NCBI GenBank assembly: GCA_964537755.1 | Contig: CAZIAQ010000002.1 | Span: forward strand, 43,567-107,566 | Origin: an uncultured Cytophagales bacterium | GTDB lineage: Bacteria; Bacteroidota; Bacteroidia; Cytophagales; Bernardetiaceae | Direction of reading: 5' to 3' | Length of the DNA stretch: 64,000 bases | Shown: positions 25,063 through 50,902 of the stretch, piece by piece | Layout of the letters: the number at the start of each line of letters is the position of its first letter | Position numbering within the stretch: the first letter of the stretch is position 1 | The notes under the pieces: model-generated | The model's input: only the letters and a program-made list of their open reading frames with translations | Databases searched by the model: none | What the model was told of the DNA's origin: nothing | Program-made: the position numbers and the translations under genes

Positions 25063-25099
25063 AAAAACCTTCATTTCCTTTGGGATGAAGGTTTTTTTA
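25063..25099 (+). terminator. Rho-independent terminator after phasin cluster
   Basis: Stem aaccttcat (25066-25074), loop, atgaaggtt (25085-25093), then TTTTTT. Confidence 0.5.
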
Positions 25100-25129
25100 G
25101 TACTTTTGGGGCTAAATTCTCTTTTACCC

Positions 25130-26134: not shown

Positions 26135-27328
26135 ATGTTAAAAAAACGCTTCTTTACGATGCTGGTCGTGGCTGCCGTACTGGCACTCCTCCAGCCTGCA
26201 CACGCACAAACCGCCCCTGGTCTTCTGGGACAGGACTCCACGCGCCGCGTCATCACGACGGCTGTTCAATTTTTGCTCATTTCGCCGGATGCCCGCAGCG
26301 CAGGCATGGGTGATGTCGGGGTAGCCATTGATGGGGATGCCAATGCCACGCACTGGAACCCCTCCAAGCTGGCCTTCGCCGAGGACGAATGGGGCGTAGC
26401 GGTCTCGTTTTCGCCCTGGCTCCGCAACCTGGTCAATGATATGTCGCTCTCCTATTTGAGTGCCTACAAACGCCTCGACAAACGCCGCACCCTGGCTGCC
26501 TCCATGCGCTACTTCGATATGGGATCCTTGCAGTTTACGGATGCCATAGGCAATCCAATTCAGGATTTTATCCCCCGTGAGTTTGCCATTGATGGCACGT
26601 ATGCCTTCCAGCTCTCCGAGAAGATGAGCATGGCCGGAACGGCGCGTTTTATTCATTCCAACCTTGCTGGCAGCATCTCCAATGGCACCGTACAAGGCGG
26701 CGGCACACGCCCAGGCAACACGGTAGCCGTCGATTTCTCGATGTTCTACAAAACGCCCCTGAGCCTCGGTAGCACGGATGCCGACATGGCTTTTGGGTTC
26801 AATATCTCTAATATCGGTGCTAAAATTTCATACAACAACCCCGAGCAGCGCGATTATCTCCCCGCCAACCTGCGCCTCGGTACGGCCTTCAATGCCCGCT
26901 TCAACCCCCGTAACCGATTAACACTTGCGCTAGATTTCAATAAGTTGCTTGTCCCTACGCCGCCCATCCTCAACGCCGATGGTACGCTCCGTGCGGGTAA
27001 GGAGTATGACCGATCGCTGCTCAACAGCGTCTTTGGTTCCTTCACCGATGCCCCTGATGGCTTAGGCGAAGAACTGCAAGAAGTGATCCTGTCCTTCGGG
27101 ACAGAGTATTGGTACAATGACATCTTTGCAATTCGGGCTGGCTACTACTACGAAAGCCCCAACAAGGGCGACCGCAACTACTTCTCCGTAGGCTTAGGGC
27201 TACGCTACCAGATGTTTGGCTTTGATTTCGCCTATCTGGTTCCCAACCAACAAAACCATCCCCTGGCAGATACGCTGCGCTTTACGCTCTTGCTCAAACT
27301 GGACAAATCGAACCCAGATGCAGAGTAG
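26135..27328 (+). CDS. porV: Type IX secretion system outer-membrane protein PorV (LptO) family
   Basis: Signal peptide. Conserved N-terminal block VITTAVQFLLISPDARSAGMGDVGVAIDGDANATHWNP typical of PorV/PorQ beta-barrels. Confidence 0.55.
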   Translation: MLKKRFFTMLVVAAVLALLQPAHAQTAPGLLGQDSTRRVITTAVQFLLISPDARSAGMGDVGVAIDGDANATHWNPSKLAFAEDEWGVAVSFSPWLRNLVNDMSLSYLSAYKRLDKRRTLAASMRYFDMGSLQFTDAIGNPIQDFIPREFAIDGTYAFQLSEKMSMAGTARFIHSNLAGSISNGTVQGGGTRPGNTVAVDFSMFYKTPLSLGSTDADMAFGFNISNIGAKISYNNPEQRDYLPANLRLGTAFNARFNPRNRLTLALDFNKLLVPTPPILNADGTLRAGKEYDRSLLNSVFGSFTDAPDGLGEELQEVILSFGTEYWYNDIFAIRAGYYYESPNKGDRNYFSVGLGLRYQMFGFDFAYLVPNQQNHPLADTLRFTLLLKLDKSNPDAE

Positions 27329-28726: not shown

Positions 28727-28826
28727 AACAACTCCAGGGAGGGATGGTTCGTTTGGATGATTTATTTTTTATCCTTGCCCTGCTGCTGTATCTTTGGTTT
28801 TCTTTCGATCAAAAAAAGTAAAAACG

Positions 28827-30368
28827 ATGCCGATACCACTTTTGCGAACCCTATCTGCGTGCTTGATTTGGCTGGGGATGAGCAGCTGGGGTTATGCCCA
28901 ATCTCAGGGAGAGCAACTGCCATTCAAAGACCTGCGGGTGCGTTTGTCTTACGAACAGATGCCACTCCGCGACTTTGCGGATATGGGCTTAGTCGGTATT
29001 GGCGTGGATGCCTTTGGGCTGGTGCCGGCCCTGCCGCGTTTGTACCTCGGGCTGGGGTCTTACTCGGCGACGGTAGGGCAGTTTGGTGGGTTGTTTACTT
29101 TTGGGGGGCAGGTGGGCTACGCGCCGTTTTTGCATCCGAAGTGGCTGCTGGATGTCGGCTTTTTTTTGGGGGGTGGCGGTGGCGCGGCTGCCCCTGATGG
29201 CGACGGCATCGCGGTACGCCCCCATGTAGCCCTCGAGTATCGGGTGGGACAGGCTGGCATACGCGGCGAAATTGTTCATCACAACTTCCTGACAGGCAGT
29301 CTTTCGGGGACATACGCTGCCCTCGGGCTTAGCCTCAATACCCGATTTTTGTATGCTCCTACCAAATCGACGACCTGGCACACCCCAGCACCAGCTCAAC
29401 ACCGCCTAGCGGTGAGCTTCCTCAACTACCACCTGCGGGAGGGATCCGTCGTTCGCCCCGACTACGACTACGATCAGCTCGTGGGGCTGCTCGGGATTCA
29501 GTATGATTATTTTTTGGCCAAGCACCTCTACGCTACCCTTGAGCTATACGGTGCCGGCCTCGGCGGCATCGACGGCTACATGAGCTATCTCCTGGGAGCC
29601 GGACTGACAACCAACAGCCAAAACCGGCTTTCGGCCGAGCTGCGCGGGCTGGCCGGCAACAGCGGCGGCGGGGCCGTCCTGACAGGCGGCGGACTAACCC
29701 TACAAGCCGAGTTAGCCCTCAACTTAAACCTCTGGCAGGGCTACTTTTTGAGAGCCTCAGCCGGAGAAACATTTGCCCCTGACGGAAAACTCTCGGCCAG
29801 GCACTTTGAAGTAGGCTTCGGGATGCGCTCCTTCAACTACCTAGCCGTAAAGGCAAAACCTACCTTACTTATCCCTTCGGATAGCCTCAAAAGCGGACAA
29901 ACCGAAATCTACTTTGGGCATCAGCAGTACCTGGCCCCGCAGGGCATCACCGACAAAAACCAACTCCCCTACCGCGACATGGGGCTACTCGTCATGGGCG
30001 CACGTCGCTACCTTCGCTCCTGGTTGAGCCTGGCAGGACAGACCCGCTGGGCTTACCTCGGCGGCGACTACGGTGCTTATGCCGAAGGGCTACTCGGGCT
30101 GGGGCTACACAAACAGGTATTGCGCCAGCGCACCCTCGAAATCTCCCTCCCGCTCTACCTCGGGGCCGGCGGCGGTGGGGGTATTGATCGCGGATCGGGC
30201 ATACACCTCGAGTACGGACTGAGCCTGGCCTACGCCTACAACGACTGGAAACTGATCGGCGGTCTCTCCCAGATTAGCTCCCCCAACGGCAACTACCAAC
30301 CCTTGACCTGGCAGGTCGGATGCGCCTACTTGATGCCGACCCTGACCCGCATTTCTCAAAAACGCTAG
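28827..30368 (+). CDS. Glycine-rich outer-membrane beta-barrel protein, function unknown
   Basis: Signal peptide (MPIPLLRTLSACLIWLGMSSWGYAQ). Alternating-hydrophobic beta-strand character. C-terminal aromatic. Confidence 0.4.
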   Translation: MPIPLLRTLSACLIWLGMSSWGYAQSQGEQLPFKDLRVRLSYEQMPLRDFADMGLVGIGVDAFGLVPALPRLYLGLGSYSATVGQFGGLFTFGGQVGYAPFLHPKWLLDVGFFLGGGGGAAAPDGDGIAVRPHVALEYRVGQAGIRGEIVHHNFLTGSLSGTYAALGLSLNTRFLYAPTKSTTWHTPAPAQHRLAVSFLNYHLREGSVVRPDYDYDQLVGLLGIQYDYFLAKHLYATLELYGAGLGGIDGYMSYLLGAGLTTNSQNRLSAELRGLAGNSGGGAVLTGGGLTLQAELALNLNLWQGYFLRASAGETFAPDGKLSARHFEVGFGMRSFNYLAVKAKPTLLIPSDSLKSGQTEIYFGHQQYLAPQGITDKNQLPYRDMGLLVMGARRYLRSWLSLAGQTRWAYLGGDYGAYAEGLLGLGLHKQVLRQRTLEISLPLYLGAGGGGGIDRGSGIHLEYGLSLAYAYNDWKLIGGLSQISSPNGNYQPLTWQVGCAYLMPTLTRISQKR

Positions 30369-30479: not shown

Positions 30480-32672
30480 ATGCAATTACCCGATGAGCCG
30501 ATAGACGACTTGCGCCTATACAAGAAAGCCTTTTTGGAGAAGCAAGCCATTGACGCTGCCATCACACAACTCCAGTCTGCCCTCCATTGGAAGGAAACCG
30601 ATACCACGGAGGGCTGGGGAGCGGGTGTTTTGGCGGTGGTCGCCGAACTGATGGACTTTGCCCAGGGGGTCATCTACGGCTACCACGCCGAACACAGTTC
30701 GTTTGAACCCTTTGCCTATCACACCGAAGCCGTGGAGGAGTGGATGCCCTATCGCAGCTACCGCAATCGGGCCGTGATGCGCTACCAAAAGGAACACCTC
30801 CTGCCTTTTCACACCAACGATGCCGCAGTTATTATTGGGTCTTTCCCGGGCTACACCCCACCCGAAGACCCCACGCAGCAACTTTCTTTGGTCAGTACTC
30901 CCCTGACCTACAACGGACAAATCCACGGCATCCTAGAAATCCTCTGCTCGAGGGAGATTGCCAAACGCGATCTCGAGTTGCTTGGGCGCATGGGACGTGC
31001 CATTGGGTCGCACCTGTACGGGTTGCTCAAAGAGCGACAGTCGCAGTTGGATGTACAACTCATCAACGAGAGCCGCCAAGACCTGGTGCATATCATCGAA
31101 AGCTCGCCTAGTGGGATGATTATTTTTTGGGAAGAAAACGGACGCATTGAGCGGGTCAATAGTGCCATCACCCAGATTTTGGGCTACGCAAAGGTAGAGT
31201 TGCGCTACAACCAATTTGAGCAGTTGGTTTTTCCCGAAGACTACCCCACAAGCGGCGGGCTACCCACCCATCCCGTTGAGTGGCGACTGCTGCACAAATC
31301 GGGGGAGGTCTGCTGGTGCCAAGTGAACTTCTCGAGGGTGCTACAACGCTCCCAACCCATGGTCATTGTGCAGGTACAAGACATCACCGAACGCAAAAAA
31401 GCCGAAGCCGAACTCGAAGCCAGCCGACAAAAGCTAGCCGAAGCCCAACGCCTGGCCCGTATGGGCAGTTGGGAGTGGGATATGGTCAATAACACCGTTA
31501 CCTGGTCGGATGAACTCTACCGCCTCTATGGCTACGACCCCAAAGAGTACCTCCCCGCCTACCACAACTCCTTCAAGCGGGTGCATCCCGAAGACCGCGA
31601 CCGCGTTAGGAGCACCATCCGGCAGGCAATCGAGAAAGGCGATGCCTTTGACTTCTTTCAGCGCATCGTACGGCAAGACGGACAAATACGCATCCTCCAC
31701 TCACGCGGAACCGTCTTGAAGGACAAGGGAGGAAAGCCCATCAAGATTTTTGGGACGGGACAAGACGTAACCGAAACCAAGGCCATGGAGCGCAAACTAC
31801 TCGAACAAGAACGCGCCCTCCAACAAAAACTCGAACGCCAGGTGCAAGAACGCACCCGAGAGCTGCAAGCCGAAAAAGAAAAACTCCAGCAGACCAACAA
31901 CGAAATCCTATCCAGCATGACCTATGCCCGAAGGATTCAGTTGGCGCTACTGCCCCAAAAGAAACAGATCAAAAAGCATCTCTCCGAATTTTTTATTTAC
32001 TACGTCCCCAAAGACATCGTCTCGGGTGATTTTTATTGGTTTGGTGTACAAAACAACCGACAAATTCTGGCCGTCGTCGATTGCACCGGACACGGCATCC
32101 CGGGCGCACTGATGAGCATGATCGGCAATGATCTCCTGAACGAAATCGTCTATCGCCGCGACATCACCGAACCCCAACAAATCCTCGAAGAACTCAACCA
32201 GGGCATCCGGCGCGCCCTACGCCAGTCCACGACCCGCAACCGCGACGGCATGGATGTCGCCCTCTGTACCATCGACTACGCGCAGCAACAGCTCTGTTTT
32301 GCCGGCGCACACAACCCACTGGTCTATGTGCAGGGAGGTGAACTCTTCTATATCAAGGGAGAACGCCGAGCCATCGGGGGTGTACAAAGCGACCAAAGCC
32401 CACCGTTTCGGCAGCACTGTATCTCCATTCGGGAAGAGACGATGTTTTATCTCTTTTCGGATGGCTACCAGGATCAGTTTGGTGGCCCTAAGGGCGCAAA
32501 ATTTATGAGCCGACGCTTTAGGCAACTGCTCCTAGAAATCGCAGCGCGCGATATGGATAATCAGGAGCTAGCCCTGGATCAGCGCATTGGCGAGTGGATG
32601 GGCAATAGCCACAAACAAATCGACGATATTTTGGTGATCGGTGTACGGATAAGCCCTGAAAACAAAGAATAA
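30480..32672 (+). CDS. GAF-PAS-PAS-PP2C (SpoIIE-type) serine/threonine phosphatase
   Basis: N-terminal GAF-like region. Two PAS/PAC blocks (WEWDMVNNTVTWSDELYRLYGY). Coiled coil. C-terminal PP2C block ARRIQLALLP...GDFYWF...DCTGHGIPGALMSMIGN. Confidence 0.7.
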   Translation: MQLPDEPIDDLRLYKKAFLEKQAIDAAITQLQSALHWKETDTTEGWGAGVLAVVAELMDFAQGVIYGYHAEHSSFEPFAYHTEAVEEWMPYRSYRNRAVMRYQKEHLLPFHTNDAAVIIGSFPGYTPPEDPTQQLSLVSTPLTYNGQIHGILEILCSREIAKRDLELLGRMGRAIGSHLYGLLKERQSQLDVQLINESRQDLVHIIESSPSGMIIFWEENGRIERVNSAITQILGYAKVELRYNQFEQLVFPEDYPTSGGLPTHPVEWRLLHKSGEVCWCQVNFSRVLQRSQPMVIVQVQDITERKKAEAELEASRQKLAEAQRLARMGSWEWDMVNNTVTWSDELYRLYGYDPKEYLPAYHNSFKRVHPEDRDRVRSTIRQAIEKGDAFDFFQRIVRQDGQIRILHSRGTVLKDKGGKPIKIFGTGQDVTETKAMERKLLEQERALQQKLERQVQERTRELQAEKEKLQQTNNEILSSMTYARRIQLALLPQKKQIKKHLSEFFIYYVPKDIVSGDFYWFGVQNNRQILAVVDCTGHGIPGALMSMIGNDLLNEIVYRRDITEPQQILEELNQGIRRALRQSTTRNRDGMDVALCTIDYAQQQLCFAGAHNPLVYVQGGELFYIKGERRAIGGVQSDQSPPFRQHCISIREETMFYLFSDGYQDQFGGPKGAKFMSRRFRQLLLEIAARDMDNQELALDQRIGEWMGNSHKQIDDILVIGVRISPENKE

Positions 32673-32755: not shown

Positions 32756-33514
32756 TTGGCTCCTATCACTATTGCCATCGTAAACCAAAAAGGCGGCACC
32801 GGCAAAACAACCACAGCCGTAAACCTGGGCAGTGCCTTAGCACAGATGGGGAAGCGCGTCTTGCTCATCGACCTGGACACCCAGGGAAGCCTGACCTATT
32901 ACCTTGGACTGACCAACTACCCGCATACGCTTTCGGAGGTGCTCAAAGGAGAACGTTCTCTATCTAACGTGATCTTACGCCAGGAAAACATGGACATCGC
33001 CCCCACCGGCGTAGAACTAGCCGACACCGAACTCACCCTGACCGGAAACGCCCGCAGGGAGTACATCTTAAAGGAAATCATCGCCGAGCAAGCCTCGGAC
33101 TACGATTTTGTGCTGATTGATAGCTCCCCGGCCTTGTCCGTCCTGACGGTCAATGCCCTGGTAGCGGCTCAATACACCTTGATCCCGATGCTCCTCGAGG
33201 TTTTGAGTGTCCAGGGCCTAGGCCTGGTGATCCGAACGATGGATCGCGTGCGGGGTAGCCTTAATCCTACCTTAAAAACAATCGGGGTCTTGCCCGTCAT
33301 GGTACGCCCCGAGAAGCAAGTGAGCCATGAAGTGTATGCCTACCTACAACAGCATTTGGGCATCCGCTTGCTCAAAACCTACATCCCCGATGATGCTTGC
33401 GCCATCGAGGCTCCTTCTTTCGGGAAAAGTATCCTGGCATACAGCCCCGAAAGCCCAAGCGCGAAGGCGTATCACGTCCTGGCAATGGAGGTGATGACTT
33501 TAACCATCTTTTGA
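32756..33514 (+). CDS. ParA/MinD-family ATPase
   Basis: Deviant Walker A KGGTGKTT. 252 aa. Immediately upstream of the chemoreceptor gene. Confidence 0.75.
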   Translation: MAPITIAIVNQKGGTGKTTTAVNLGSALAQMGKRVLLIDLDTQGSLTYYLGLTNYPHTLSEVLKGERSLSNVILRQENMDIAPTGVELADTELTLTGNARREYILKEIIAEQASDYDFVLIDSSPALSVLTVNALVAAQYTLIPMLLEVLSVQGLGLVIRTMDRVRGSLNPTLKTIGVLPVMVRPEKQVSHEVYAYLQQHLGIRLLKTYIPDDACAIEAPSFGKSILAYSPESPSAKAYHVLAMEVMTLTIF

Positions 33515-33576
33515 TGGAACGGCAAAGAAATTGCAGACCTAAACAAAAACAATAAAAGAAATAACCCACAAGCACT

Positions 33577-36500
33577 ATGGCACTTGGAGACAACCTCAAC
33601 AAAGATAGTCTGATCCCGCAGGAGAGCCACGCCACCGGCAACGAATGCCAGCAGCTCAAAGCCGCCTTGCACGCCCTTGTGCCTAGCCTCGAGCTAGATA
33701 TGCAAGGACAAATCCTGACCGCCAACGCCCCTTTTGTCCGTTGGCTGGGATTTACCGCCGACGAACTCAAAGGCAAGTCCGAACGCGCCCTACACACCGA
33801 AGCCTTCCGCCAAAACGGACGACACGCCAACGTGTGGGAATCGCTCCGAGGCGGAAAACCCTTTTCGGGAAACTTTGAGTTGATCGACAAAGAAGGACGC
33901 ACCATCACGGCCCAGATCGCCTATACCCCTCTGCTGGATGCCTCGGATCGCCCCTACAAAATCCTCCAACTGATCCAGCCCCTCCAAGACCAGCCCAGCA
34001 TCTCGTCGGACAGCCAGGAAGAGATCGAAAACCAAAAGACCCTCATCCATACCGTGCCAGGGGTCTTGTATCGCTTCGTGGCCCGGCACACGAGCGAGTA
34101 TCTCTTTCGCTACCTTAGCCCGCAGATGGCAGATATTTACGGCGTTCCAGCCGAGGAAGCCCTACAGGATTTCTCCAAAGTGCTGGCGGTGATTCATCCC
34201 GACGACCTACCCGGCGTACAGGCAGCTATCACAGAGGCCGTAGCCAAGCAAGGCTTCTTCGATTATGAGTACCGCATCTTTGTCAAAGACAAAATTCGTT
34301 GGATACGCGCCCAATCACGGGTCGAATACGTAAACGCCGATGAGGTAGAGTTTGTCGGAATTTTTAGGGACGTAACGATCCGCAAAACCGCCCAACTCAA
34401 AGCCGAAACCAACGAGGCAGCCTTCCAGCGCGTCCTGGATACCGTCCCGGGGGTGATCTACCGAGCCAAGCTCAACGCCCAAGGGCTGCCCTATTTCACC
34501 TATCTAAGCCCCTATGCTGAGCAGGTGTTTGGCTATACACCCGCAGAGGTGATGACCAACCCCGAGATGTACTGGAGCTTGATTTATCAGGATGACAAAT
34601 CTGATTTTGAAGCCAAAATGCGCCAATCCATCGCCCAACGAAGTGGCGTAGCGATGGAGTTTCGGATCACGAAGAAAAACGGCGATGTGATCTGGGTCAA
34701 GCTAGACTCCAGCGTCGATCAGGCATCGGAGGAGTACGAGTCTTACGGTATCATCCGAGATGTTACGCCGCGCATCCAAGCCCAGCAGGCGCTCAAAGCC
34801 CAGCAGCAAGATAGCCAGGAGTTGATCGCTACCGTTCCCGGGATCATCTATCGCTTTGAAGTATCCGACGAAGGAACTTCACGGATTACGTTCATCAGCG
34901 AGCAGGTACGGGAGGTCTATGAAGTCGAACCCGAAGCCGCCCTCCAAGATGCCAACACCATGTTTGGCTTGGTTTATCCCGAAGACCTACCCTTGATCCA
35001 GGAGCGGATCACACATTCGATCCAAACCAAGGCACTTTACGACGTAGAGTTCAGGATAAAGACCGCCCAAACACAAACCGAAAAATGGATTCGGGTACAA
35101 TCCAGGGTTGTGCGTCAGCAGGATGGCATCACGGAGTTTGTGGGCTTCCTGCGGGATGTGAGTACACGCCGCCGGATCCAGAACCGCGTAGCAGAAAGCG
35201 AAGAACGCTTCAACCTAGCCTTGCAGGGCAGCAACGACGGCGTATGGGATTGGAACATGCGCACGAACGATATTTTCTTCTCCGATCGCTGGAAAGCCAT
35301 GTTGGGCTATGCCCCGCAAGATATTGCAGATAACTTCGCGCAGTTTCAGGCTTTGGTGCATCCAGAGGACTTCCCCCAGGTAGAAAACGCCCTCAATGGC
35401 TACCTTGCCGGACAGTTGCCCGAGTACGATGTCTCGTTCAGGATGCAACACCAGGACGGCAGCTACCGCTGGATTCGGGCGCGTGGCAAAGCCCTATTCG
35501 ATCCGACGGGCAAGCCCTACCGCATGGCTGGTTCTCACTCCGACATCACCGACATCCGCAACAAACAAATCGCCCTTGAGGAGGCAACGGCTTACCAACG
35601 CGCCGTCCTTGAAAGCGCGGGCTTTGCCGTCGTCTCTACCGATGCCGATGGGGTCATTAACATTTTCAATGAAGCCGCCGAGCGCGACCTGGGCTATACC
35701 GCCGAGGAGATGATCGGTAAGCAAACGCCTGCCTTGATCCATGACCCCGAGGAGGTCGTTGCCCGTACCCACGAACTCAACCAGGAGATGGGACTTGATC
35801 TAAGCCCTGGATTCGAGACCTTTGTTTATCGCACCCGCACGACGGGAAAACCAGACATCCGCGAGTGGCATTACGTCCGCAAAGACGGCAGCAAATACCC
35901 CATCGTGCTTTCGGTAACCGCCGTCCGCAATGCCGCTGGAGAAGTTCTGGGCTACCTCGATATCAGCGAAGACATCAGCGAGCGCAAAGCCAAAGAAAAT
36001 GCCCTCCGCGAAAGCGAGCAACGCTTCAACACCTTCTTTGACCAGTCGATTGACTTGCTCTGTATTGCTGGCTTCGATGGCTACTTCAAGTTCTTGAACC
36101 AAAACTGGATGAACCTCCTGGGCTACACCAAGGACGAACTCAAAGCCCAGCCCTTCATTGAATTTGTTCACCCAGACGACGTAGCCGCTACCCTCCAGGA
36201 GGCCGGCAAACTCGCCGATGGGGCGACGGTTATCTCCTTCGAGAACCGCTACCGCAAAAAAGACGGTAGTTATGTGTGGCTCCAATGGAACTCGGCTCCC
36301 GTCTATGAAAAAGAACTCATCTACGCCAACGTCCGCGACATCACGGAAGAAAAAGCCCGCGAAATCCGCTTCAATCGGCAGAATGACATCCTAAACCGTC
36401 TGCCCATCAATAAAGATGTTCAAGCAGGTAACCGAGACGAAGCCATTCGGGTAATCCTGAGGTCGGTTGCCGAAGGGGTACATGTCGAACGGGCAAGTTT

Positions 36501-39500
36501 TTGGCACTACAACGCCGATCAAAGTTTCATTACGTGTCAGCAACTCTACCAACGCAGCCAACAGCAGTTCTCCAACGACCCTTTGGTGCTGCATCAAAAA
36601 GATTTCCCGTCTTATTTTGCAGCCTTGAAGCGGGGTACGCTTATCGTAGCATCAGAGGCACAAACAGACCCCGACACGCGGGAGTTCACCGAAGGCTACT
36701 TTAAGCCGAATCAAATACAATCTTTGCTCGATGTGCCGGTGCGCTTCAAAGGGGAGATCATGGGTGTTTTGTGCATCGAACACGTAGGATCAACAGCCTA
36801 TCACTGGACAAGCGATGACCAAAAGTTTCTTCGTGCCATACCGGAGATCATCACCTCCGTCATGGAAGCCGAAGAACGCCAACGTCTCGAAGCCGAAATT
36901 CGAGCCAATGCTGCCTTCAACCGCAAACTCTTTGAGGTCTCCAACTACGGGCTGCTCGTCCTTGAAGGGGGGAGTTTTACCAGTGCCAATGCCGCTGCCA
37001 TCGCACTCTTTGGCGGAGAAAAGGCCACAGAGCAAGACATCATCGGCAAAACACCCATCGACTTCTCCCCGACTACCCAACCCGACGGCAGCGACAGTGA
37101 AGCCACCCCCCTGAGGCACATCCAACGCGCCATCGACGAAGGCAGTACACTCTTTGAGTGGCAGCACCTACGAACGGACGGCACGCTATGGGATGCCGAG
37201 ATCAGCCTTATCAGTTTTGACCTGAACGAACGCACCCTGATTCGGGTCTCGATGCGCGATATTACCGAAGAAAAAGCCGCCCGAGAGAAGATCAAAGCCC
37301 AGCAAAAAGAACTCGATGATTACGTCTCGGCCATCAATACCTCCACGATACGTATTGACTTCGATGCCCAACGCCGCGTCATCACGATCAATGACAACTT
37401 TGCCGAGCTGTTTGGCTACACCGAAACCGAAGTTCTGGGCAAAACCCATGACTTCTATGTGGCTAAGGATCAAATCCGAGAGGGTAAATACGATCAGTTA
37501 TGGGACGAGATTGGCAGAGGTGTTTCTTTTGTTCGAGATGCCAAGCGGCTCTCCAAAGCAGGAAAAGAAGTTTGGCTACGGGCTAGTTATATCCCGATAC
37601 TCAATCAGCAGGGGCATCTCGAGCGCGTTACCTGTCTCTGCAACGACATCACCGAACAAAAACAATTTGAACTCGAAGCCAGCCGCCTCCAAGGCGAACT
37701 CGAAGCCCGAATGAAGATCATCGACAAGGTGGCTCTGGTTACTGAAACGGACATCTACGGAACGATCACTTTTGCCAACGAAAAGTTTACGGAGGTCTCC
37801 GGCTACACCAACACCGAAGCCGTAGGCAAACCCCATAACATTGTCCGCCATCCCGATAACCCCAAAGGCATCTACAAGGAGATGTGGGATACGATCAAGG
37901 CCGGTAAGCTCTTCCAAAAGACCATCAGAAACCGCCGCAAAGACGGTACAGATTACTGGGTCGATGCCTCCATTGCCCCCATCCTGAACGAAAAAGGTGA
38001 GATTGTCAAGTATCTGGGCTTCCGTATCGACATCACCGCACAAAAACAACGAGAACTGGAGCTACAACGCCTCCAAAACGAACTCGAGGTACGTCTGAAG
38101 GTCATCAGCAAGGTGGCTCTTCTGAGTGAATCCGACTTGCAAGGGCGCATCACGTATGCCAACGATAAGTTTTGTGAAGTCGCCCAATACACCGAAGCCG
38201 AACTCATCGGTAAGCCGCATAGCATCATCCGCCATCCCGAGACACCCAAAACCATCTTCAAAGAGATGTGGGAAACCATCCAGGCAGGAAACATCTTCCA
38301 GGGAACCTACCGCAACCGCGCCAAAGATGGACGCACCTATTGGGTCGATGCTACGATTGCCCCCGTCCGAGACGAAAACGGCGACATCTACAAGTATCTC
38401 GGCTTCCGCATCGACATCACGGATCGCATCGAACAAACCGCCCGCATAGAAGCCCAAAACTTTGCCATCGGCAAATCCAACGGTACAATCGAACTCTCAC
38501 CCGAAGGGCAAATCCTGGACGCAAACAAAACCTACCTTGACTTTGTGGGCTACACCCGAGATGAACTGATCGGCAAGCACCATAGCTTCCTTTGCAAGCC
38601 CGAGGAGGTCGCCTCACCGAGCTACAAAGAAATGTGGCAAACCCTTCGAGAGGGAAAGACCCTCTTTGGCGACTACCGAAGGATCACGAAGGATAAGCGA
38701 GAGGTTTTCATCCAGGAATCGTTTAGCCCGATCTATGACCAAAGCGGCAACCTGTCCAGCATCCTGACCCTTGCCGTCGATGTAACCCAGCGCAAGCGAC
38801 GCAACGCCGAAAACCGAGGCAAACTTGAGGGGATCAATAGCACCAACATCGTCATAGAGTACGACTTTGAAGGCCGGCTCCTGACCGCCAACGAAAACTT
38901 CCTCCAAACCAGCGGCTATACCCTCGAAGAGGTCATCGGCAAGCCTCACAGTTTCTTCTGCGATCAAAACCACATCAACAGCAGCACCTACCAAGACCTC
39001 TGGAAAAAACTCCGACAAGGAGAAGCCGTTTTTGATACCTACCCCCGTATCGGCAAGGCCGGACAACGCATCTGGCTCGAGGGTAGCTACACCCCCATCA
39101 CGGATGACGACGGACGACTGCTCAAGATCGTCAAGTTTGCTCAGGATGCCACCGAACGCCGCACCCGTAACGCCGAAAACCGAGGCAAGCTCCAGGGCAT
39201 CAACCGGACTAACCTCGTCGTGGAGTTTGATCGAGAGGGGGTTGTCATCTCGGCCAATAACCGATTCCTGGAAGCGATGGGGTACCAGCGTGAGGAATTC
39301 ATCGGGAAGGCACATGCCATGTTCTGTGATGAAGTCTATCGCAACAGCCGCGAGTACCGCGAGTTCTGGGATGACCTCCGCAGTGGTAAGGCACTCTTTG
39401 GGACATACCCGCGCCTAAACAAAGCAGGCAAGCGCATCTGGCTCGAAGGCAACTACACCCCGATCACGGACGGTGAAGGCAACTTCTTGAAAGTTGTCAA

Positions 39501-40881
39501 GTACGCCCGAAACGTAACCGACCTTCGGCAGTCTTCCATGGCTTTGAGCAACTTCGTAGATGCCCTCTCCCAGGGTAACTTCGATGCCGAAATCCAACTC
39601 GAAGGCGTAAGCATTGAAGGAGACATCGGGAAGATGATCGGCAACGCCATCAACCTCCGCGATAACCTCCGAAGCATTATCACCGAAATCAAGCGCGTCG
39701 TGGAGGCTGCTGGTAAGGAGGGTAAGCTCGACGAACGCCTCAACATCGAAGGCGCAAGGGGTTCCTGGAAACTCTTAGCTGACTCGGTAAACGAACTGCT
39801 CCGCTCCATCTCCGAACCCATCCTGGACATCAAGCGGGTCATCCAGTCGCTCTCCGAAGGAGACCTAACGACCTCCTTCAACTACGCCGCCACCGGGCAG
39901 CTTCAAGCCATGGGACAGGCGATGAACAACGCCATCCAGAGCCTGAACGTGATCCTGAAAGACCTCGAAAGCAGTGCCGTTACGTTAGGGCAATCCTCTC
40001 ACCTACTCGAGCAGCGATTTGAGGGCATGGAAAAAGATGCCCAAAGCGTCGTCAAGACCATCGTCAATATCAACGACGGGATGCACCAGCAGGTACAACA
40101 AACCGATCAGGCAACCCAACTCGTCGAGAAGGTCATCAAGAGTGCCGACGAAACAGGACAGCAGGCGGGTATCATCCGAGGAGCCGCCGAAAAAGGGATG
40201 CAGCGTTGCGACGACGGGATGAAAATCATCCGACAACTGGTACAAGAGATGAGCCAGATCGACCTGACCGCCAACCGCACCAGCTCTTCCATCAGCACGC
40301 TCTCCGATCGCTCCGATGAAATCTCCCGTGCCTTGAGTGTCATCACCGACATTGCTGCCCAAACCAACCTCCTGGCCCTCAATGCTGCCATCGAAGCAGC
40401 CCGAGCCGGAGATGCCGGACGTGGCTTTGCCGTCGTTGCCGAAGAGATACGAAAGCTAGCCGAGGATTCCCGACGATCCGCTACGGACATCGAGCGGGTC
40501 ATCAAGGATGTATCCAAAGACATCAACACCGCCGCCGATTCTATCAATCGGATGAAAAACAGCGTAGAAAACGGCAACCGAGCCACCAAAGAAGCCCGAG
40601 AGGTCTTTGAGAACATCTCCGATTCTAGCCGCGAAACCCTGGATTTGTCCCGCAGTGTCTCCGAAGCCACCAGCGGTCAAAAGGAGATCATCACGCAGGT
40701 AGCCAGCAACATCCAACGCATCGTGCAGGTCTCTCACCAGACTGCCAAAGGAACAGAGGATGCCACCAAGTCATCCGAAACGCTTCAAAGTTCGGTCGAT
40801 GAGGTTGCCACTGTCAGTAAGGAACTCGCCAAGCTCTCCGGTACGCTCAAAACAGGGGTTAGCCGCTTCAAACTTGTCTAA
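33577..40881 (+). CDS. Giant soluble methyl-accepting chemotaxis protein with about 14 PAS/PAC domains, a GAF domain, HAMP and MCP signalling domain
   Basis: 2434 aa. Many repeats of the PAS/PAC pattern (W..D..R..A..). C-terminal MCP signalling core [34 protein letters not shown]. No obvious N-terminal TM helices. Confidence 0.85.
37669..38410 (+). repeat. Tandem duplicated PAS module pair inside the MCP gene (two units of about 370 nt)
   Basis: Protein blocks [40 protein letters not shown]... and [39 protein letters not shown]... are co-linear and roughly 60-65% identical. Confidence 0.6.
38790..39520 (+). repeat. Second tandem duplicated PAS module pair inside the MCP gene
   Basis: [43 protein letters not shown]... 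versus [43 protein letters not shown]..., co-linear through ...[14 protein letters not shown] / [14 protein letters not shown]. Confidence 0.6.
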
Positions 40882-40893
40882 TCCCCTCACCTG

Positions 40894-41376
40894 ATGCAAG
40901 AGCAACTACAGACAGCCACACTCCTCAACGATACACGGGGGAGCAAAGAGATCGCCCAAATCATCGTCTTTCGGCTTGGGCAGGAGGAGTATGGCTTGTC
41001 CATCGAACAGATCAAGGAAGTCGTGGCTACGCCAAAGGTCGCCGCCGTCCCGATGTCCCCCGATTACATCGCCGGTATCGCCAATGTACGGGGCAACATC
41101 CTGGCTATCGTCGATTTAGAAAAAAAGTTTGACTTGCCCCACCCAGGCAGCGATGCCCTACCCCCTTACACACTCGTTGTGGAGAGCTGGGAACACAACA
41201 TGGGGCTGCTTGTTCGGCAGGTACCCAATACGCTAAGTATCCCCGAGGCTGACATCGACCGCTCCCCGCAAGTGATCGCGGAGCGCAACTACGTGGAGGG
41301 GATTGCCCGAGTGGGCGAAGATCGACTCATCATTTTGATTGATATTTTTAAGGTAATCTCAAAACAAGAACTATGA
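40894..41376 (+). CDS. cheW: Chemotaxis coupling protein CheW
   Basis: 160 aa CheW-like domain. ATGA overlap with the next gene. Confidence 0.8.
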   Translation: MQEQLQTATLLNDTRGSKEIAQIIVFRLGQEEYGLSIEQIKEVVATPKVAAVPMSPDYIAGIANVRGNILAIVDLEKKFDLPHPGSDALPPYTLVVESWEHNMGLLVRQVPNTLSIPEADIDRSPQVIAERNYVEGIARVGEDRLIILIDIFKVISKQEL

Positions 41377-41744
41377 CAACACGTGTCTTGATCGTGGACG
41401 ACTCGCTCTATATGCGAACCGTCATTAAGGAAGCCCTCGAGGAGAACAACTACCAGATCGTTGGGCAGGCCGCCGACGGTGAGAGTGCCATCGACTTGGC
41501 CCTGGAGCTACAGCCTGACCTCATCACGCTGGATAATATCTTGCCCGATATGCTGGGGCTGGACATCATCCGCACCCTCAAGGAGGAGAGCGTCAATGCC
41601 AGGATCATCATGATTAGTGCCGTTGGGCAGCAGTCGGTTATCAATGCCGGTATGGGCCTCGGAGCGGATCATTACATCGTCAAGCCTTTCTCCTCCGAGC
41701 AGCTCCTGGATGCCATTCAAGAGGTGATGACCAAAAACAAATAA
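41373..41744 (+). CDS. CheY-like single-domain response regulator
   Basis: Receiver domain. DD pair (LIVDDS), phospho-acceptor in LITLDN, conserved K in IVKPF. Confidence 0.75.
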   Translation: MTTRVLIVDDSLYMRTVIKEALEENNYQIVGQAADGESAIDLALELQPDLITLDNILPDMLGLDIIRTLKEESVNARIIMISAVGQQSVINAGMGLGADHYIVKPFSSEQLLDAIQEVMTKNK

Positions 41745-41750
41745 ACACCC

Positions 41751-42110
41751 ATGAGCCGTAACAGCGTCCTGATCGTCGAAGATTCTAAGTACATGCAAGA
41801 GGTGATCCGCAATGCCCTGGCAGGAAAATATACCGTCGTTGGCGTTACGGACAAAGCCGAGGAGGCCCTTACCCTTGCCCAAAGCCTACAGCCCGCTATC
41901 ATCACCCTCGATAACATCCTACCCGATGGCTTTGGAGGTGATGTCGTACAAGAACTCCGCGCCCGTGGATACAAAGGCAAGATACTCATGGTCAGTTCGT
42001 TGGCAAACCAAGCCATGATCCAACAAGAACTCCAACAGGGGGCTAACGGCTATCTGGCCAAGCCTTTCACCGAAGACGAACTCCTCAAAGCACTCCAAAA
42101 AATCCAGTAG
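41751..42110 (+). CDS. CheY-like single-domain response regulator (second copy)
   Basis: Receiver domain (LIVEDS, IITLDN, LAKPF). Confidence 0.7.
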   Translation: MSRNSVLIVEDSKYMQEVIRNALAGKYTVVGVTDKAEEALTLAQSLQPAIITLDNILPDGFGGDVVQELRARGYKGKILMVSSLANQAMIQQELQQGANGYLAKPFTEDELLKALQKIQ

Positions 42111-42112
42111 CC

Positions 42113-43894
42113 ATGAAAACCGAAGAACTCAAGGAACTTTTCATGGGCGAAGCCCTCAACCATCACGAAGAACTCAACCGGCTCTTCACCGAACTGGAGC
42201 AGGACTTGAGCAACTCAGGGCTGATCGACCACATCTTCCGACGGCTGCACACCCTCAAAGGCGATGCCGCTGGTATGGGGTTTCAGGACATCGCCGAGAT
42301 GGCCCACACAATGGAAGACCTCTTCGGGGAAATGAAAAAGCACGGCTGGATCATGGAAAAAGAGGACTTCAACCACCTCTTCCGCGCCCTCGATAAGCTC
42401 GGCGAACTCCTGGATGCCCTCAAAACCGGGCAAAAAGTATCCTACAAAGGGCTACGCGCCAAACTCAAGCTGCTCCTCGATAACGCCCAAGCCTCGCGTC
42501 AGGATGCCCCCCTAGCCCAACCTGAACGCCCACCCGCCCCACCGGCGCCACAAGCGGATACGCCCCTACCTACACCTACACCTACACCCGCCGCGACAAG
42601 CAACGAAGACGAAGCGGACGACTCAACCAAAAAAGCCTCCAAGATCACCTTTGCCGAAGCCATCCAGGTACCGGTCAAGAAACTCGACGACCTAATGAAA
42701 CTCGTCGGTGAACTGGCCATCGAAAAAGACCGCATCGCCAACGACCGCAGCCAGGGGCAATCGCGCCTCAACACCTTTGATCGCCTCAACCGGATTACTT
42801 CCGATTTGCAGTACTCCGTCATGGGAGCGCGTCTGGTGCGGGTAGAACTCTTGTTTCAGAAGTTTCACCGCATTGTCCGAGATGTAGCCCACACCGAAGG
42901 CAAAGAAGTCGAACTGATCCTGAAAGGAACAGACATCGAAATTGATCGAAACGTACTCCAGACGATCTCCGACTCGATGATACATCTGGTCAGAAATGCC
43001 GTCAGTCATGGCTTAGAAGAACCCCACGAACGCCAGCGCGTAGGCAAGCCCACCAAAGGCACTATTCGACTGGAAGCCAATAACTTAAAAGACAGTGTCG
43101 TCATTCAGGTAGCTGATGACGGACGTGGCATAGACCCCGAGCGCGTGCGCCAAAAGGCCATCGAACGCGGGTTGTTTAGCGAAAGCATGGCCCAAAAACT
43201 AACCGAAAAAGAAGTCATCGACCTGATCTTTGAACCCAACTTTTCGCTCAAAGAAAAGGTAACGGCTGTTTCGGGGCGCGGCGTGGGCATGGATGTTGTC
43301 CGTAATGCCATTGACCAGATCGGTGGGAGCATCCAGATCCGTACCGCCCTGGGTGTCGGGACAAGTTTTGCCTTGCGCTTGCCCGCTTCGATGGCGGTCA
43401 AGAACGCCCTGCTTTTTGTTCTCAATGAAGCCGAGTTTGCCATTCCGCTTGCCTTCACCGAAGCCGTCATTGCCGTTCCCAAATCGCGGATTCATCGTGT
43501 GGGGCAAGGCTTGATGACGACACATCAGGAAAAGACCATTTCGGTTATTTTTCTTAGAGATGTCTTTGCTGTTCAGCGTTTGGAGGACCTCTACCAGGCG
43601 CGTCGCTTGCAGCAGAGCTTTTCCGAACACGCCGAGGACGACCTGCTGAACATGATTATTGTTCAGGCAGATAACCGCTCGGTAGGACTGGTCGTTGATC
43701 GCTTGCTCCAACAAAAAGAGATCATCGAAAAACCCCTCGTAAAGCCTCTGGAAAGCATCTATTTTTTTAGTGGCGCCACCATTTTGGGCAACGGCAACGT
43801 ATGCCTCATCTTGGATATTCCCAATCTCATCAAGATTTTGTTCAGAACCTCTGGCTTGCTCACCCACCAGGAAACCCTAGCATCAAGCCACTAA
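42113..43894 (+). CDS. cheA: Chemotaxis histidine kinase CheA
   Basis: Hpt motif HTLKGDAAGMGF. Pro/Thr/Ala-rich linker. HATPase_c G-boxes (DDGRGID, GRGVGMDVV). C-terminal CheW-like domain. Confidence 0.85.
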   Translation: MKTEELKELFMGEALNHHEELNRLFTELEQDLSNSGLIDHIFRRLHTLKGDAAGMGFQDIAEMAHTMEDLFGEMKKHGWIMEKEDFNHLFRALDKLGELLDALKTGQKVSYKGLRAKLKLLLDNAQASRQDAPLAQPERPPAPPAPQADTPLPTPTPTPAATSNEDEADDSTKKASKITFAEAIQVPVKKLDDLMKLVGELAIEKDRIANDRSQGQSRLNTFDRLNRITSDLQYSVMGARLVRVELLFQKFHRIVRDVAHTEGKEVELILKGTDIEIDRNVLQTISDSMIHLVRNAVSHGLEEPHERQRVGKPTKGTIRLEANNLKDSVVIQVADDGRGIDPERVRQKAIERGLFSESMAQKLTEKEVIDLIFEPNFSLKEKVTAVSGRGVGMDVVRNAIDQIGGSIQIRTALGVGTSFALRLPASMAVKNALLFVLNEAEFAIPLAFTEAVIAVPKSRIHRVGQGLMTTHQEKTISVIFLRDVFAVQRLEDLYQARRLQQSFSEHAEDDLLNMIIVQADNRSVGLVVDRLLQQKEIIEKPLVKPLESIYFFSGATILGNGNVCLILDIPNLIKILFRTSGLLTHQETLASSH

Positions 43895-43910
43895 ACTTAC
43901 CCAGCCGGAA

Positions 43911-44549
43911 ATGAGCGATCACACCCTACTTGCAACGAGTATTACCCAGATGGCACTAGCACACGCGGCCAGTGCGTTCGGCAAAATGATTAAAGAAGAG
44001 GTCATTGTGCATCACTTTACGGTACAGCCCAAGACCTGGCCCGCTGTGGACGGTGAGTTTTTTGTCTTGCGTACCGACATCAAGGGCGACTTTGCGGGCG
44101 AGGTCTATTTGGTCGTCAGCCCGACGGACGAACCCCGTATCTCCGAGCTGCTCTTGCCTGGAAGCCTGGTAGGCCAACCCGAAATGCGAGAAGCCATCCT
44201 GCTCGAGGTCGATAACATCCTGACGGCGGCCATGGTAACGAAATACTCCGAAATCCTGCAAAAACAGATCATCGGTGATGTCCCCGAAGCCCAAACCTAT
44301 CAGCCCGAACGCCTGGTGGCTTACTTTGATGCCCAGCACCAACAGCCGAACTACGTGTTTACCTTTGCTGCCGAGCTAATTACGCTCCAAAGCCAGCTCA
44401 AGTTGTACATCGTCGGTTTTTTTGATGAGCGGTTTGTGCAGGATGTCCAGGAAGCGATCACCCATCCTCCACGCAAAAAAAATGAAGCCGCAGAGACCTA
44501 TATCTCCAAGACCACTAAGGGGCTTTTCCGTAAAATTTTGCCCTGGTAA
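43911..44549 (+). CDS. Putative CheC/CheX-like CheY-P phosphatase
   Basis: Contains E-x2-N-x22-P (LEVDN...22 residues...P), which is the CheC/CheX/FliY active-site consensus. Follows cheA directly. Confidence 0.4.
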   Translation: MSDHTLLATSITQMALAHAASAFGKMIKEEVIVHHFTVQPKTWPAVDGEFFVLRTDIKGDFAGEVYLVVSPTDEPRISELLLPGSLVGQPEMREAILLEVDNILTAAMVTKYSEILQKQIIGDVPEAQTYQPERLVAYFDAQHQQPNYVFTFAAELITLQSQLKLYIVGFFDERFVQDVQEAITHPPRKKNEAAETYISKTTKGLFRKILPW

Positions 44550-44569: not shown

Positions 44570-45404
44570 TTGTTCTTGATGACCATTAAGACCGATATAT
44601 TTTTGGGCGATTGCCGAGAGATACTACAACAGTTACCCGACCAAAGCGTAGATCTCATCTTTACATCGCCTCCTTATGCCGACCAAAGAAAAAATAGCTA
44701 TGGTGGCATTCATCCCGATCAATACGTGGACTGGTTTCTGCCTATTGGGGGGGAGTTGCACCGTATCCTCAAGCCTACAGGTACGTTTGTCCTGAATATC
44801 AAGGAGAAAGTAGTCAATGGTGAACGCAGTACCTATGTACTAGAGTTGATCCTATCCTTGCGCCAGCAGGGCTGGCTTTGGACGGAGGAGTTTGTGTGGC
44901 ACAAAAAAAATTCTTATCCAGGCAAGTGGTCGAACCGCTTCAGAGATAGCTGGGAGCGTTTGCTCCAGTTCAACAAAGAGAAAAAATTCAACATGTACCA
45001 GGATGCCGTCAAAGTACCGATTGGAGACTGGGCAAAGGGGCGTTTGAAAAATCTAAGCCAGACGGATAAAGTACGCGATACAGCCAAAAATGGCAGTGGT
45101 TTTGGAAAGAAGATCGCCAACTGGGTAGGAAAAGACACCGTTTATCCCAATAACGTGATCCACCTGGCCACAGAATGCCAAAACAAAAACCATCCAGCCG
45201 CCTTCCCAGAAGCACTCCCTCCCTGAGTGGTTCATCAAACTGTTCACACAAGCAGGCGATACCGTACTTGATCCCTTTGCCGGATCAGGAACAACCCTTC
45301 GGGTTGCGCAAAAGATGGGGCGGCACAGCATCGGCATCGAAATCACGGAGGACTACCATCAGATGATGGTCAAGGAAATTGAACCACAGATGCAGCTATT
45401 CTGA
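44570..45404 (+). pseudogene. Beta-class DNA methyltransferase (N4-C/N6-A type) interrupted by a +1 frameshift near 45221-45226
   Basis: Motif IV FTSPPY near the N-terminus. After the in-frame TGA at 45224-45226 the +1 frame continues EWFIKLFTQAGDTVLDPFAGSGTTLRVAQKMGRHSIGIE (motif I FxGxG). Junction ...AFPEALPP*/EWF at ccctccctgag is consistent with a 1-nt insertion. Confidence 0.6.
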
Positions 45405-50233: not shown

Positions 50234-50902
50234 ATGAAATATCACCTGTACACTTTTCTCCTCCTGATCGCTTGTCTTGCTTTACCTTGCCTGAACGCCT
50301 ACGCCCAAGATGACGAACCCGATGGATGGGCAAACGATCCCCTAAAAAAACCCAAAATCTGGCAGACCCTCAAAGAAGATCCCACCGATGCCGCCGCCTG
50401 GGAAGCCTACATGGGATCTCCCGTGAGCAAACTCTCCGACAAAGACCTCGGACGCTATGCCAGTTGGAAACAACAACTGATGCTCCAACGCCTCACCGAA
50501 AACGAAGCCATCGTAGGACTGGTGATCTCCGATCAGATGATGGATGACTTTTTTATTGACGAACAGGCCTTTACCGAGTTTGATCGCCTCATCAAAGAGA
50601 CCCTAGCCTCATCCGAACCAGGTATCACCCGAGCCGACCTGGCAGGTGTAGAAGCCATCATCATGACCGAACGCGAAGACCTTTCCTATCTCAAGCGAAA
50701 CATCAAACAAAACTTTGCCATCATCGAAGATGTCTATCAGGAAATATTTGCCGAATACAAAGTAGAATATGAGTTTTATCAAGACAAATATCCCGACGGC
50801 AGCTATAGCCAAACCAAATGGATCGAAGACCATGAAATCAAACTCAAGCAACTTCGTGATGACCAAATCAAAAAGTTGCAGAGCCGATACAAAGTAGATT
50901 AG
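50234..50902 (+). CDS. Hypothetical secreted protein
   Basis: Signal peptide with AYAQ cleavage region. Acidic helical protein. No recognised motif. Confidence 0.35.
   Translation: MKYHLYTFLLLIACLALPCLNAYAQDDEPDGWANDPLKKPKIWQTLKEDPTDAAAWEAYMGSPVSKLSDKDLGRYASWKQQLMLQRLTENEAIVGLVISDQMMDDFFIDEQAFTEFDRLIKETLASSEPGITRADLAGVEAIIMTEREDLSYLKRNIKQNFAIIEDVYQEIFAEYKVEYEFYQDKYPDGSYSQTKWIEDHEIKLKQLRDDQIKKLQSRYKVD

Follow-up and report, generated by a model that had tools for sequence, protein, structure and literature searches.

A ParA-linked chemosensory operon with a soluble 14-PAS receptor belongs to a reduced branch, devoid of local CheB, CheR and CheD, of an operon family in Cytophagales

How a chemosensory pathway operates, and what it controls, when it is built around a giant soluble receptor with no adaptation enzymes encoded beside it, is the question raised by a seven-gene operon of an uncultured Cytophagales bacterium of the family Bernardetiaceae. 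The operon lies in a stretch of 64,000 nucleotides (NCBI GenBank assembly GCA_964537755.1, contig CAZIAQ010000002.1, positions 43,567 to 107,566; hereafter the window, with positions counted from its first letter), and this part of one metagenome-assembled genome (MAG) was the search space for host genes. The operon encodes a ParA-like ATPase, a methyl-accepting chemotaxis protein (MCP), CheW, two CheY proteins, CheA and a CheC-like protein (open reading frame 7, ORF7). The analysis showed that it is no one-off: it belongs to a chemosensory operon family that occurs across Cytophagales and represents, within it, a branch that is derived and reduced.

The operon outlined in the first-pass annotation of the window proved to be real. 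All seven ORFs were found on the plus strand with unchanged boundaries (Table 1), and the proposed order, ending with a CheC/X-like gene, is upheld by domain calls with Pfam and NCBIfam, by profile comparison and by fold. The genes indeed overlap or abut, the spacers being 62, 12, −4, 6, 2 and 16 bp in gene order. Scans of the region 30–46 kb for sigma-70 promoters and intrinsic terminators gave the same counts as shuffled sequences, Bacteroidota promoters being outside the model of the scan. As for the host, proteins 100% identical to CheA and ORF7 are labelled as belonging to a Bernardetiaceae bacterium, which agrees with the Bacteroidota origin guessed from the letters alone. The window also contains porV from a type IX secretion system (T9SS; 26135–27328, plus strand), a gene that supports a T9SS-bearing Bacteroidota host. 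The cultured members of Bernardetiaceae are non-flagellated gliders.

The lack of CheR and CheB genes near the operon, which had been claimed earlier, was borne out and extends to CheD. A tblastn search with 153 CheB, CheR and CheD queries from Cytophagales revealed no CheR, CheB methylesterase or CheD in the window; the queries touched two receiver genes only, through the receiver domain of CheB. According to Pfam scans, none of the large ORFs of the window encodes CheR, CheB, CheD, flagellar or pilus proteins. In addition, the methylation consensus [ASTG][ASTG]xx[EQ][EQ]xx[ASTG][ASTG] has no match in the window receptor, which differs at the aligned position from the site usual in its relatives, AAGT[QE][QE]VASS. 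Seemingly, the missing CheR and CheB are not merely a matter of gene location, since the receptor too is devoid of the methylation consensus.

Relatives of the operon were collected in a BLAST-based census, in which CheA was scanned for in one genome per species and 80 loci with 10-kb flanks (L numbers below) were examined; two more relatives came from exact look-ups, namely, Flammeovirga kamogawensis and a metagenomic relative with a 71%-identical CheA. At least 333 species genomes encode a member of the CheA family, almost all carrying labels of Cytophagales or other Bacteroidota, and homologues 44–71% identical to the window CheA are present throughout Cytophagales. Their common layout can be written as [ParA]-MCP-CheW-[CheD]-CheY-CheB-CheA-CheC-like-[GAF-PAS protein]-CheR, where the MCP is soluble, belongs to the 44-heptad (44H) type, carries globin or PAS domains and has a length of 590–1401 aa. 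A typical locus, that of Pseudochryseolinea flava (L033, annotated by Pfam), holds the full set of CheA, CheW, CheY, CheB, CheR, CheC and CheD. This common architecture indicates an F1-type gene set for the family, and the CheA scores agree: the window CheA scores 387 bits with the NCBIfam model CheA_Halo and 270 bits with the model of the E. coli type. The window operon is best described as having F1-like ancestry and a reduced complement, because the full F1 set is not present, CheB, CheR and CheD being absent from the window; the labels F1-like and 44H are based here on tip geometry, alignments, gene content and general CheA models rather than on class-specific hidden Markov models (HMMs). 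The databases already label the relatives as CheA, and no description of this operon family of Cytophagales or of its reduced branch was found in the literature.

The reduced branch is represented in the census by 10 MCP-bearing loci (L001–L007, L009, L012 and L017), which, like the window, lack CheB methylesterase, CheR and CheD over a distance of 10 kb. Loss of these genes and loss of the methylation site go together: the consensus was found in none of the 11 MCPs of the branch, window included, as against 60 of the 67 from CheB-positive loci (Fisher test, p = 4e-9, phylogeny ignored). Six more loci on the CheB-less side carry CheY-CheA-CheC apart from any MCP. In the neighbour-joining (NJ) tree of CheA, midpoint-rooted and constructed without support values, all of these loci fall on one side of the root, separate from the CheB-positive ones. 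Loss within the branch is the parsimonious direction under this rooting, as CheB, CheR and CheD are part of the ancestral Che core. The receptors of the branch are also longer, with PAS arrays expanded to 7–14 domains: complete MCPs measure 1313–2434 aa (median 2090, n = 7), against 590–1401 aa elsewhere (median 809, n = 57). ParA lies directly upstream of the MCP gene in all seven branch members for which upstream DNA was available. In Flammeovirga species, in Algivirga and in several lineages known from MAGs, the architecture has stayed equally reduced.

These data bear on the idea that the operon serves conventional chemotaxis with methylation-based adaptation, for which cheR and cheB would be encoded elsewhere in the genome, possibly along with genes for flagella or type IV pili. 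Such an arrangement appears quite unlikely. It would suit the fact that only 64 kb of the genome are visible, and in L008, from the same part of the tree, cheR and cheB are unlinked from cheA; the distribution of the methylation consensus between the two groups of loci, the altered site in the window receptor, the absence of CheD from the whole window and the placement of the host in a family of Cytophagales whose cultured members glide without flagella all speak against it. A type IV pilus system with a multi-Hpt kinase of the ChpA type and PilG, PilH, PilI and PilJ was also considered and rejected: there is only one Hpt domain in the window CheA, and the scans found pil genes nowhere in the window.

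Outside the reduced branch, five Reichenbachiella loci (L019, L022, L023, L025 and L046) have this CheA family encoded behind two or three transmembrane MCPs, with ParA flanked by the MCPs and a long CheW (269–359 aa). The CheA family is consequently not limited to soluble receptors. Some genomes have the entire operon in duplicate, as paralogues (L043 and L047 in OZ245814.1; L060 and L077 in Chryseolinea JTS-AC15), and one such pair is only 13 kb apart.

The receptor itself corresponds to the soluble multi-PAS protein with GAF and HAMP domains that had been predicted. It contains 14 PAS domains by TIGR00229, a GAF domain (Pfam match at aa 953–1088) and a HAMP_2 match, and no transmembrane segment was detected, the highest Kyte-Doolittle mean over 19 residues being 1.35. 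According to a self-trained HMM, the seven PAS domains that precede the GAF domain occupy aa 36–136, 168–267, 296–398, 428–530, 552–659, 683–802 and 824–924, and the seven that follow it occupy aa ~1115–1230, 1255–1360, 1384–1488, 1512–1616, 1633–1738, 1755–1860 and 1877–1982. Most of them are divergent, with pairwise identities of 39% or less, apart from two pairs at 64% and 54%; judged by these values, the divergent domains are apparently old and the two pairs younger. The receptor of the closest relative, L002 (2392 aa), is nearly collinear with that of the window, and 10 of 13 PAS domains can be matched up in the same order, with identities of 58–85%. The 13-PAS array of Flammeovirga shows no one-to-one correspondence with the window array, which suggests that long PAS arrays arose more than once in the CheB-less branch.

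Two adjacent PAS domains of the receptor are of the Aer type. The domains at aa 1384–1488 and 1512–1616 share 44% (E = 2e-30) and 45% (E = 6e-29) identity, respectively, with residues 14–120 of E. coli Aer and 64% identity with each other, and they keep the segments PHNxVRHPD and PHSxIRHPE. Most likely, this pair binds flavin adenine dinucleotide (FAD) and reports the redox or energy state of the cell. The first-pass annotation had suggested a redox or light input. Its redox part gains support from the Aer-type pair. LOV-type blue-light sensing was rejected: neither NCRF nor N[CA][RK][FIVL][LM] has a match in the MCP, and the NCBIfam models for YtvA and LOV scored below cutoff. Given the Aer-type pair and the absence of a LOV cysteine motif, redox or energy state is the best-supported input of the receptor. 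Among the relatives, six operon MCPs (L033, at 4623–7574 of its locus, L030, L057, L073, L074 and L081) have an N-terminal globin domain in front of PAS domains. These globin-coupled receptors are a further sign of oxygen or redox sensing in the family.

Previously, it was reported that Aer signals without adaptive methylation (PMC13232288). Besides the PAS similarity and the retained PHNxVRHPD segment, the window receptor has in common with Aer that neither possesses methylation sites. However, Aer, a receptor of the 36H class with a single PAS domain, is anchored in the membrane and shares its arrays with methylated receptors, whereas the window receptor is soluble, of the 44H type and equipped with 14 PAS domains and a GAF domain, and the operon shows no methylated receptor that could be its partner.

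As for the signalling part of the receptor, the Pfam MCPsignal match spans aa 2204–2385. The conserved glycine hairpin, which had been singled out beforehand as the feature to check, is intact at aa 2266–2296. From the hairpin tip, 155 aa, or 22 heptads, lead to the C-terminus, and about 154 aa separate the end of the HAMP domain (aa 2124) from the tip. The best match in the PDB is the T. maritima receptor TM1143 (2CH7), aligned end to end (8–310 against 5–300). The equal 22-heptad arms and the end-to-end alignment with TM1143 assign the receptor to the 44-heptad type without a C-terminal tail, and the C-terminal pentapeptide tail is indeed missing from the signalling domain.

The ATPase encoded by the first gene carries a deviant Walker A motif, KGGTGKT, and its closest solved relative is Soj of T. 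thermophilus (1WCV, E = 2e-46), MinD being far weaker (E = 4e-19). Apart from the window, 22 loci have the ParA gene next to the MCP gene. Receptors encoded right after ParA tend to share a short N-terminal peptide: the start MALG[DNK]N..K was found in 21 of these 23 MCPs, compared with 10 among 41 further MCPs (Fisher test, p = 2e-7, again with phylogeny ignored). Such starts are seen in the window and in L001, L002, L005, L006, L009, L021, L042, L044 and other loci, and the next ~50 residues are unrelated among these MCPs. Probably, ParA is functionally tied to the receptor through this conserved peptide, which is likened here to the ParA-stimulating N-terminal peptide of ParB/Spo0J.

The components between the receptor and the output retain their catalytic residues: this was found for CheA, both CheY proteins and the CheC-like protein. 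CheA is composed of P1 (with H46), a Pro/Thr-rich linker, P3, P4 and P5, with no recognisable P2 domain, and its best match in the PDB is CheA of T. maritima. CheY1 keeps the DD pair, D53, S82, K104 and the aromatic Y; its identity reaches 87% with the L002 orthologue and 62–72% with the CheYs of more distant family relatives. As the conserved receiver, CheY1 likely provides the main output. In CheY2, too, the acid pocket and the aromatic switch residue are retained, as are the Asp that accepts the phosphoryl group, the Ser/Thr and the Lys. A direct orthologue of CheY2 was found only in L002 (56% identity), and two adjacent single-domain receivers occur in L036 too. The possibility that CheY2 is a remnant of the receiver of CheB was rejected, as it scores on average 97 bits with CheYs and 43 bits with the receivers of CheBs. 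By its sequence, CheY2 is a lineage-specific, diverged paralogue of CheY, and it may serve as a second output or take up phosphate as a sink.

The last protein of the operon, ORF7, has by itself no match in Pfam and gives only a sub-threshold match to CheC in NCBIfam. Its close homologues are few; a profile search retrieved 40 sequences, some annotated as CheC and three with PF04509, and an exhaustive search with the family profile led to 1014 cluster representatives. A profile of 38 sequences of this family matches CheC of T. maritima (1XKR) at E = 1e-14. The AlphaFold2 model of ORF7 (mean predicted local distance difference test score 89.8) has the same protein as the best Foldseek match (E = 1.4e-12, template modelling score 0.67–0.69), followed by FliY, CheX and FliM. 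The second active site, E99-x2-N102-x22-P125, is invariant in 38 of 38 sequences (alignment A2); its E..N pair is present in all 79 full-length homologues from the loci, and the E..N pair of the first site in only 15 of the 79. In ORF7 itself the first site is degenerate (S..Q), and the second agrees with the motif [DS]xxxExxN-x22-P except at position −4, which is Ala, not Asp or Ser. The earlier label CheC/X-like is appropriate, since the fold is that of CheC and the protein, like CheX, has one conserved site. The fold model and the motif make ORF7 a candidate phosphatase of phosphorylated CheY (CheY-P).

The CheC-like protein of the window ends with a basic amphipathic tail. The window tail (...TKGLFRKILPW) and others in this clade (...KKGFFKNIFG; Flammeovirga ...EDKKGFFKNIFG) are closely similar to the C-terminus of E. 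coli MinD, ...EEKKGFLKRLFGG (...KKGFLKRLFGG), and share with it the basic pattern [FL][FL]xx[IL][LF]. Equivalents were found in L001, L005–L007, L009, L012 and L017; the tail is present only in CheB-less members with a CheC-like gene after the MCP operon, and CheB-positive relatives are without it. In the AlphaFold2 model, residues 201–209 form a helix after a low-confidence linker. The hydrophobic moment of the tail is not separable from background, and the MinD tail itself scores low; because this measure does not discriminate, the argument rests on the sequence pattern and on the distribution in the clade. The C-terminus of MinD is a membrane-targeting helix. By analogy, the tail probably tethers the CheC-like protein to the membrane, with the difference that the targeting sequence of MinD is located on an ATPase and here on a predicted phosphatase.

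Table 1. Features of the chemosensory operon and of the gene upstream of it (positions in the window)
Feature	Position	Strand	Evidence
Protein with GAF-like N-terminus, 2 PAS domains and PP2C (SpoIIE, SiaA-like) phosphatase domain	30480..32672	+	Pfam PAS_3, SpoIIE
ParA/Soj-type P-loop ATPase, 252 aa	32756..33514	+	Pfam AAA_31 E=8e-50, CbiA
Soluble MCP-type chemoreceptor, 2434 aa	33577..40881	+	7 PAS, GAF, 7 PAS, HAMP, signalling domain
MCP N-terminal peptide, candidate ParA-interacting (ParB-like)	33577..33618	+	MALGxN motif
GAF domain of MCP, aa 953-1094	36433..36858	+	Pfam GAF E=9e-12
Two tandem Aer-type PAS domains of MCP, predicted FAD-binding, aa 1384-1488 and 1512-1616	37726..38424	+	Aer similarity
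HAMP domain of MCP, aa 2061-2124	39757..39948	+	Pfam HAMP_2 E=1e-9
Signalling domain of MCP, 44H-like, aa 2125-2434, tip ~aa 2278	39949..40881	+	PF00015 E=2e-41
CheW coupling protein, 160 aa	40894..41376	+	Pfam CheW E=6e-31
CheY1 single-domain receiver, 123 aa	41373..41744	+	Response_reg E=1.5e-27
CheY2 single-domain receiver, 119 aa	41751..42110	+	Response_reg E=1.7e-23
CheA histidine kinase, 593 aa	42113..43894	+	Pfam Hpt, H-kinase_dim, HATPase_c, CheW
CheC-fold CheY-P phosphatase candidate (ORF7), 212 aa	43911..44549	+	Profile, AlphaFold2 fold, active-site motif
C-terminal basic amphipathic tail of CheC-like protein, aa 196-212 (...YISKTTKGLFRKILPW)	44496..44546	+	MinD-like pattern

Immediately downstream, 20 bp after the operon, lies an N4/N6 DNA methyltransferase gene (44570–45400, plus strand), in which the frame stops at 45226 and the motif DPFAGSGTT is in another frame; it is either a pseudogene or the product of an assembly error. 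The methyltransferase (44570–45226) was tried as a substitute for CheR and rejected, as it is a frameshifted DNA methylase that is not conserved beside the operon. Other genes of the window include two encoding large proteins (11926–16056, plus strand, 1376 aa; 53235–55709, minus strand, 824 aa) with three TIR domains each (TIR_2 or ThsB-like), which may act in defence or as NADases. A Cas6-like gene is located at 22844–23668 (minus strand); no CRISPR array was found beside it (23600–25150), and the only nearby repeat is a 145-nt pair with 72% identity (24012–24156 and 24358–24502) in a 1.4-kb stretch devoid of ORFs of 150 aa or more. Four plus-strand ORFs of 222–739 aa have no Pfam match (28794–30368, 58047–60266, 50234–50902 and 60862–61530).

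The frameshifted methylase is one of the observations that would fit a decaying or non-functional relic, in which the PAS array became over-extended and the adaptation genes were lost on the way to pseudogenisation: it may reflect sequence errors of the MAG or true decay, three genes are lost, and the first CheC site is degenerate. This scenario is nevertheless very improbable. The receptor ORF of 7305 nt is uninterrupted, the catalytic and signalling residues are all kept, the near collinearity with the L002 receptor and the persistence of the reduced architecture in several lineages are not expected of a relic, and the branch even gained the amphipathic tail.

Upstream, the gene for a PAS-PP2C protein ends 83 bp before the operon. 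Its product scores 219 bits with the NCBIfam SiaA model, below cutoff; a likewise placed gene precedes the operon of L002, and the gene is possibly associated with the operon. One of the ORFs without Pfam match (28794–30368) is situated just upstream of it, and a second SpoIIE/PP2C phosphatase is encoded at 55817–57337 (plus strand). GAF-PAS proteins are encoded inside the operons of CheB-positive relatives. In L008, CheY-CheA-CheC has at a distance of 6 kb a cluster of DUF6272, SiaC, CheR and a CheB with no receiver, a hint that partner-switch modules are linked with Che systems in Cytophagales.

Such neighbours raise the prospect of an alternative cellular function, in which CheY-P would feed a partner switch with a SiaA-like PP2C or another regulator of aggregation, biofilm formation or development. 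The upstream gene shared by the window and L002, the GAF-PAS proteins embedded in the relatives' operons and the L008 cluster are in line with this idea, as is the fact that many hosts of the family are not known as tactic. Still, the only response regulators of the operon are single-domain CheYs accompanied by a dedicated phosphatase of the CheC type. This combination is characteristic of fast motor control, and the outputs of alternative-function systems (Wsp, Che3) usually carry effector domains. In addition, the position of the PP2C gene relative to the operon varies across the relatives. A function of this kind is, on balance, unlikely, though less so than conventional adaptation with unlinked genes.

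Taken with the single-domain CheYs and the dedicated phosphatase, the T9SS and the absence of visible flagellar genes make gliding the obvious candidate for the output. It is moderately probable that the operon encodes a ParA-positioned, methylation-independent cytoplasmic array that senses energy or redox state and whose CheY output probably steers gliding. The receptor would integrate intracellular signals through its 14 PAS domains, at least two of them of the Aer type, and the GAF domain, and together with CheW and CheA it would form cytoplasmic signalling arrays. The Soj-type ParA would position and partition these arrays along the nucleoid by way of the receptor's MALGxN..K peptide, in the manner of PpfA and TlpT. 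CheA would phosphorylate CheY1 as the output and the fast-evolving CheY2 as a sink or second output. The signal would then be reset by the single-site CheC-like phosphatase, perhaps helped by CheY2, with the MinD-like tail tethering the phosphatase to the membrane. Methylation adaptation would be dispensed with: the locus no longer holds genes for CheB, CheR and CheD, and mutations have altered the receptor's methyl-accepting pairs, which argues for methylation-independent signalling as in E. coli Aer. Most likely, the pathway would set the direction or reversal of gliding in a non-flagellated, T9SS-bearing filamentous bacterium.

Several points weigh against this interpretation. All of its support is computational and none is experimental. 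It is in question whether about 2000 residues of sensor domains per receptor could be packed into a 12-nm hexagonal lattice, and we know of no partner of CheY-P in T9SS-driven gliding. The profile of the N-terminal peptide matched none of the PDB sequences, and the likeness to the Rhodobacter sphaeroides operon CheOp3 described below is one of arrangement. The association statistics ignore phylogeny, and the CheA tree was built by NJ, rooted at the midpoint and given no support values. As only 64 kb of the MAG are visible, cheR, cheB, flagellar and pilus genes could be elsewhere, and L008, one of the six loci split from an MCP, has CheR and a receiver-less CheB 6 kb away.

Known systems resemble the operon in parts. 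According to two studies of R. sphaeroides, PpfA, encoded beside the soluble receptor TlpT, sets the position of the cytoplasmic array on the nucleoid and acts via the N-terminus of TlpT "in a ParB-like manner" (PMC3964821; PMC11407121). CheOp3 and the window operon share a soluble MCP gene beside a gene for a ParA-type ATPase within a che operon. R. sphaeroides differs in being flagellated and in having CheR, CheB and a split CheA3/CheA4 kinase, with no CheC and with a TlpT of 567 aa that has no PAS array. The F1 class (Thermotoga, Bacillus, archaea) has the 44H receptor, a CheA like those of T. maritima and haloarchaea and the CheC fold in common with the window operon, and CheD, CheB and CheR in common with its relatives. 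In the window, by comparison, no flagellar genes are visible, CheB, CheR and CheD are lost, CheC retains one active site instead of two, and ParA is added. In the Frz system of Myxococcus xanthus, gliding reversals are controlled by a cytoplasmic MCP, FrzCD; however, FrzCD binds DNA directly via a basic N-terminal tail, with no ParA or PAS array, and the system keeps CheR (FrzF) and CheB (FrzG) and has a CheA-CheY fusion. There is no evidence of common descent between Frz and the window operon beyond the Che core. All single components are of known kinds, and it is their combination that is new: a putative methylation-free pathway, a 14-PAS soluble 44H receptor, a putative ParA-peptide coupling and a phosphatase tail resembling a membrane-targeting sequence.

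To our knowledge, the steering of T9SS-driven gliding in Bacteroidota has not been explained. In a review of gliding mechanisms from 2026, chemosensory control is not mentioned for Bacteroidota (PMC13104615). A bolder proposal, which we regard as tentative and put forward with less confidence than the array model above, is that the operon family represents the long-missing sensory input of T9SS gliding, its reduced branch being a methylation-free 14-PAS array spread by ParA, through a ParB-like peptide, along the nucleoids of a filamentous cell and served by a membrane-tethered phosphatase. If true, kinase and phosphatase would be spatially separated, and CheY-P would be reset at the side of the motor.

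For the family as a whole, sister branches with and without CheB, CheR and CheD constitute a natural experiment. They raise the questions of how adaptation may proceed without methylation, whether hexagonal arrays can accommodate sensors of ~2000 residues and whether ParA-positioned cytoplasmic arrays exist beyond Proteobacteria. The culturable relatives Flammeovirga, Algivirga and Bernardetia make these three questions testable.

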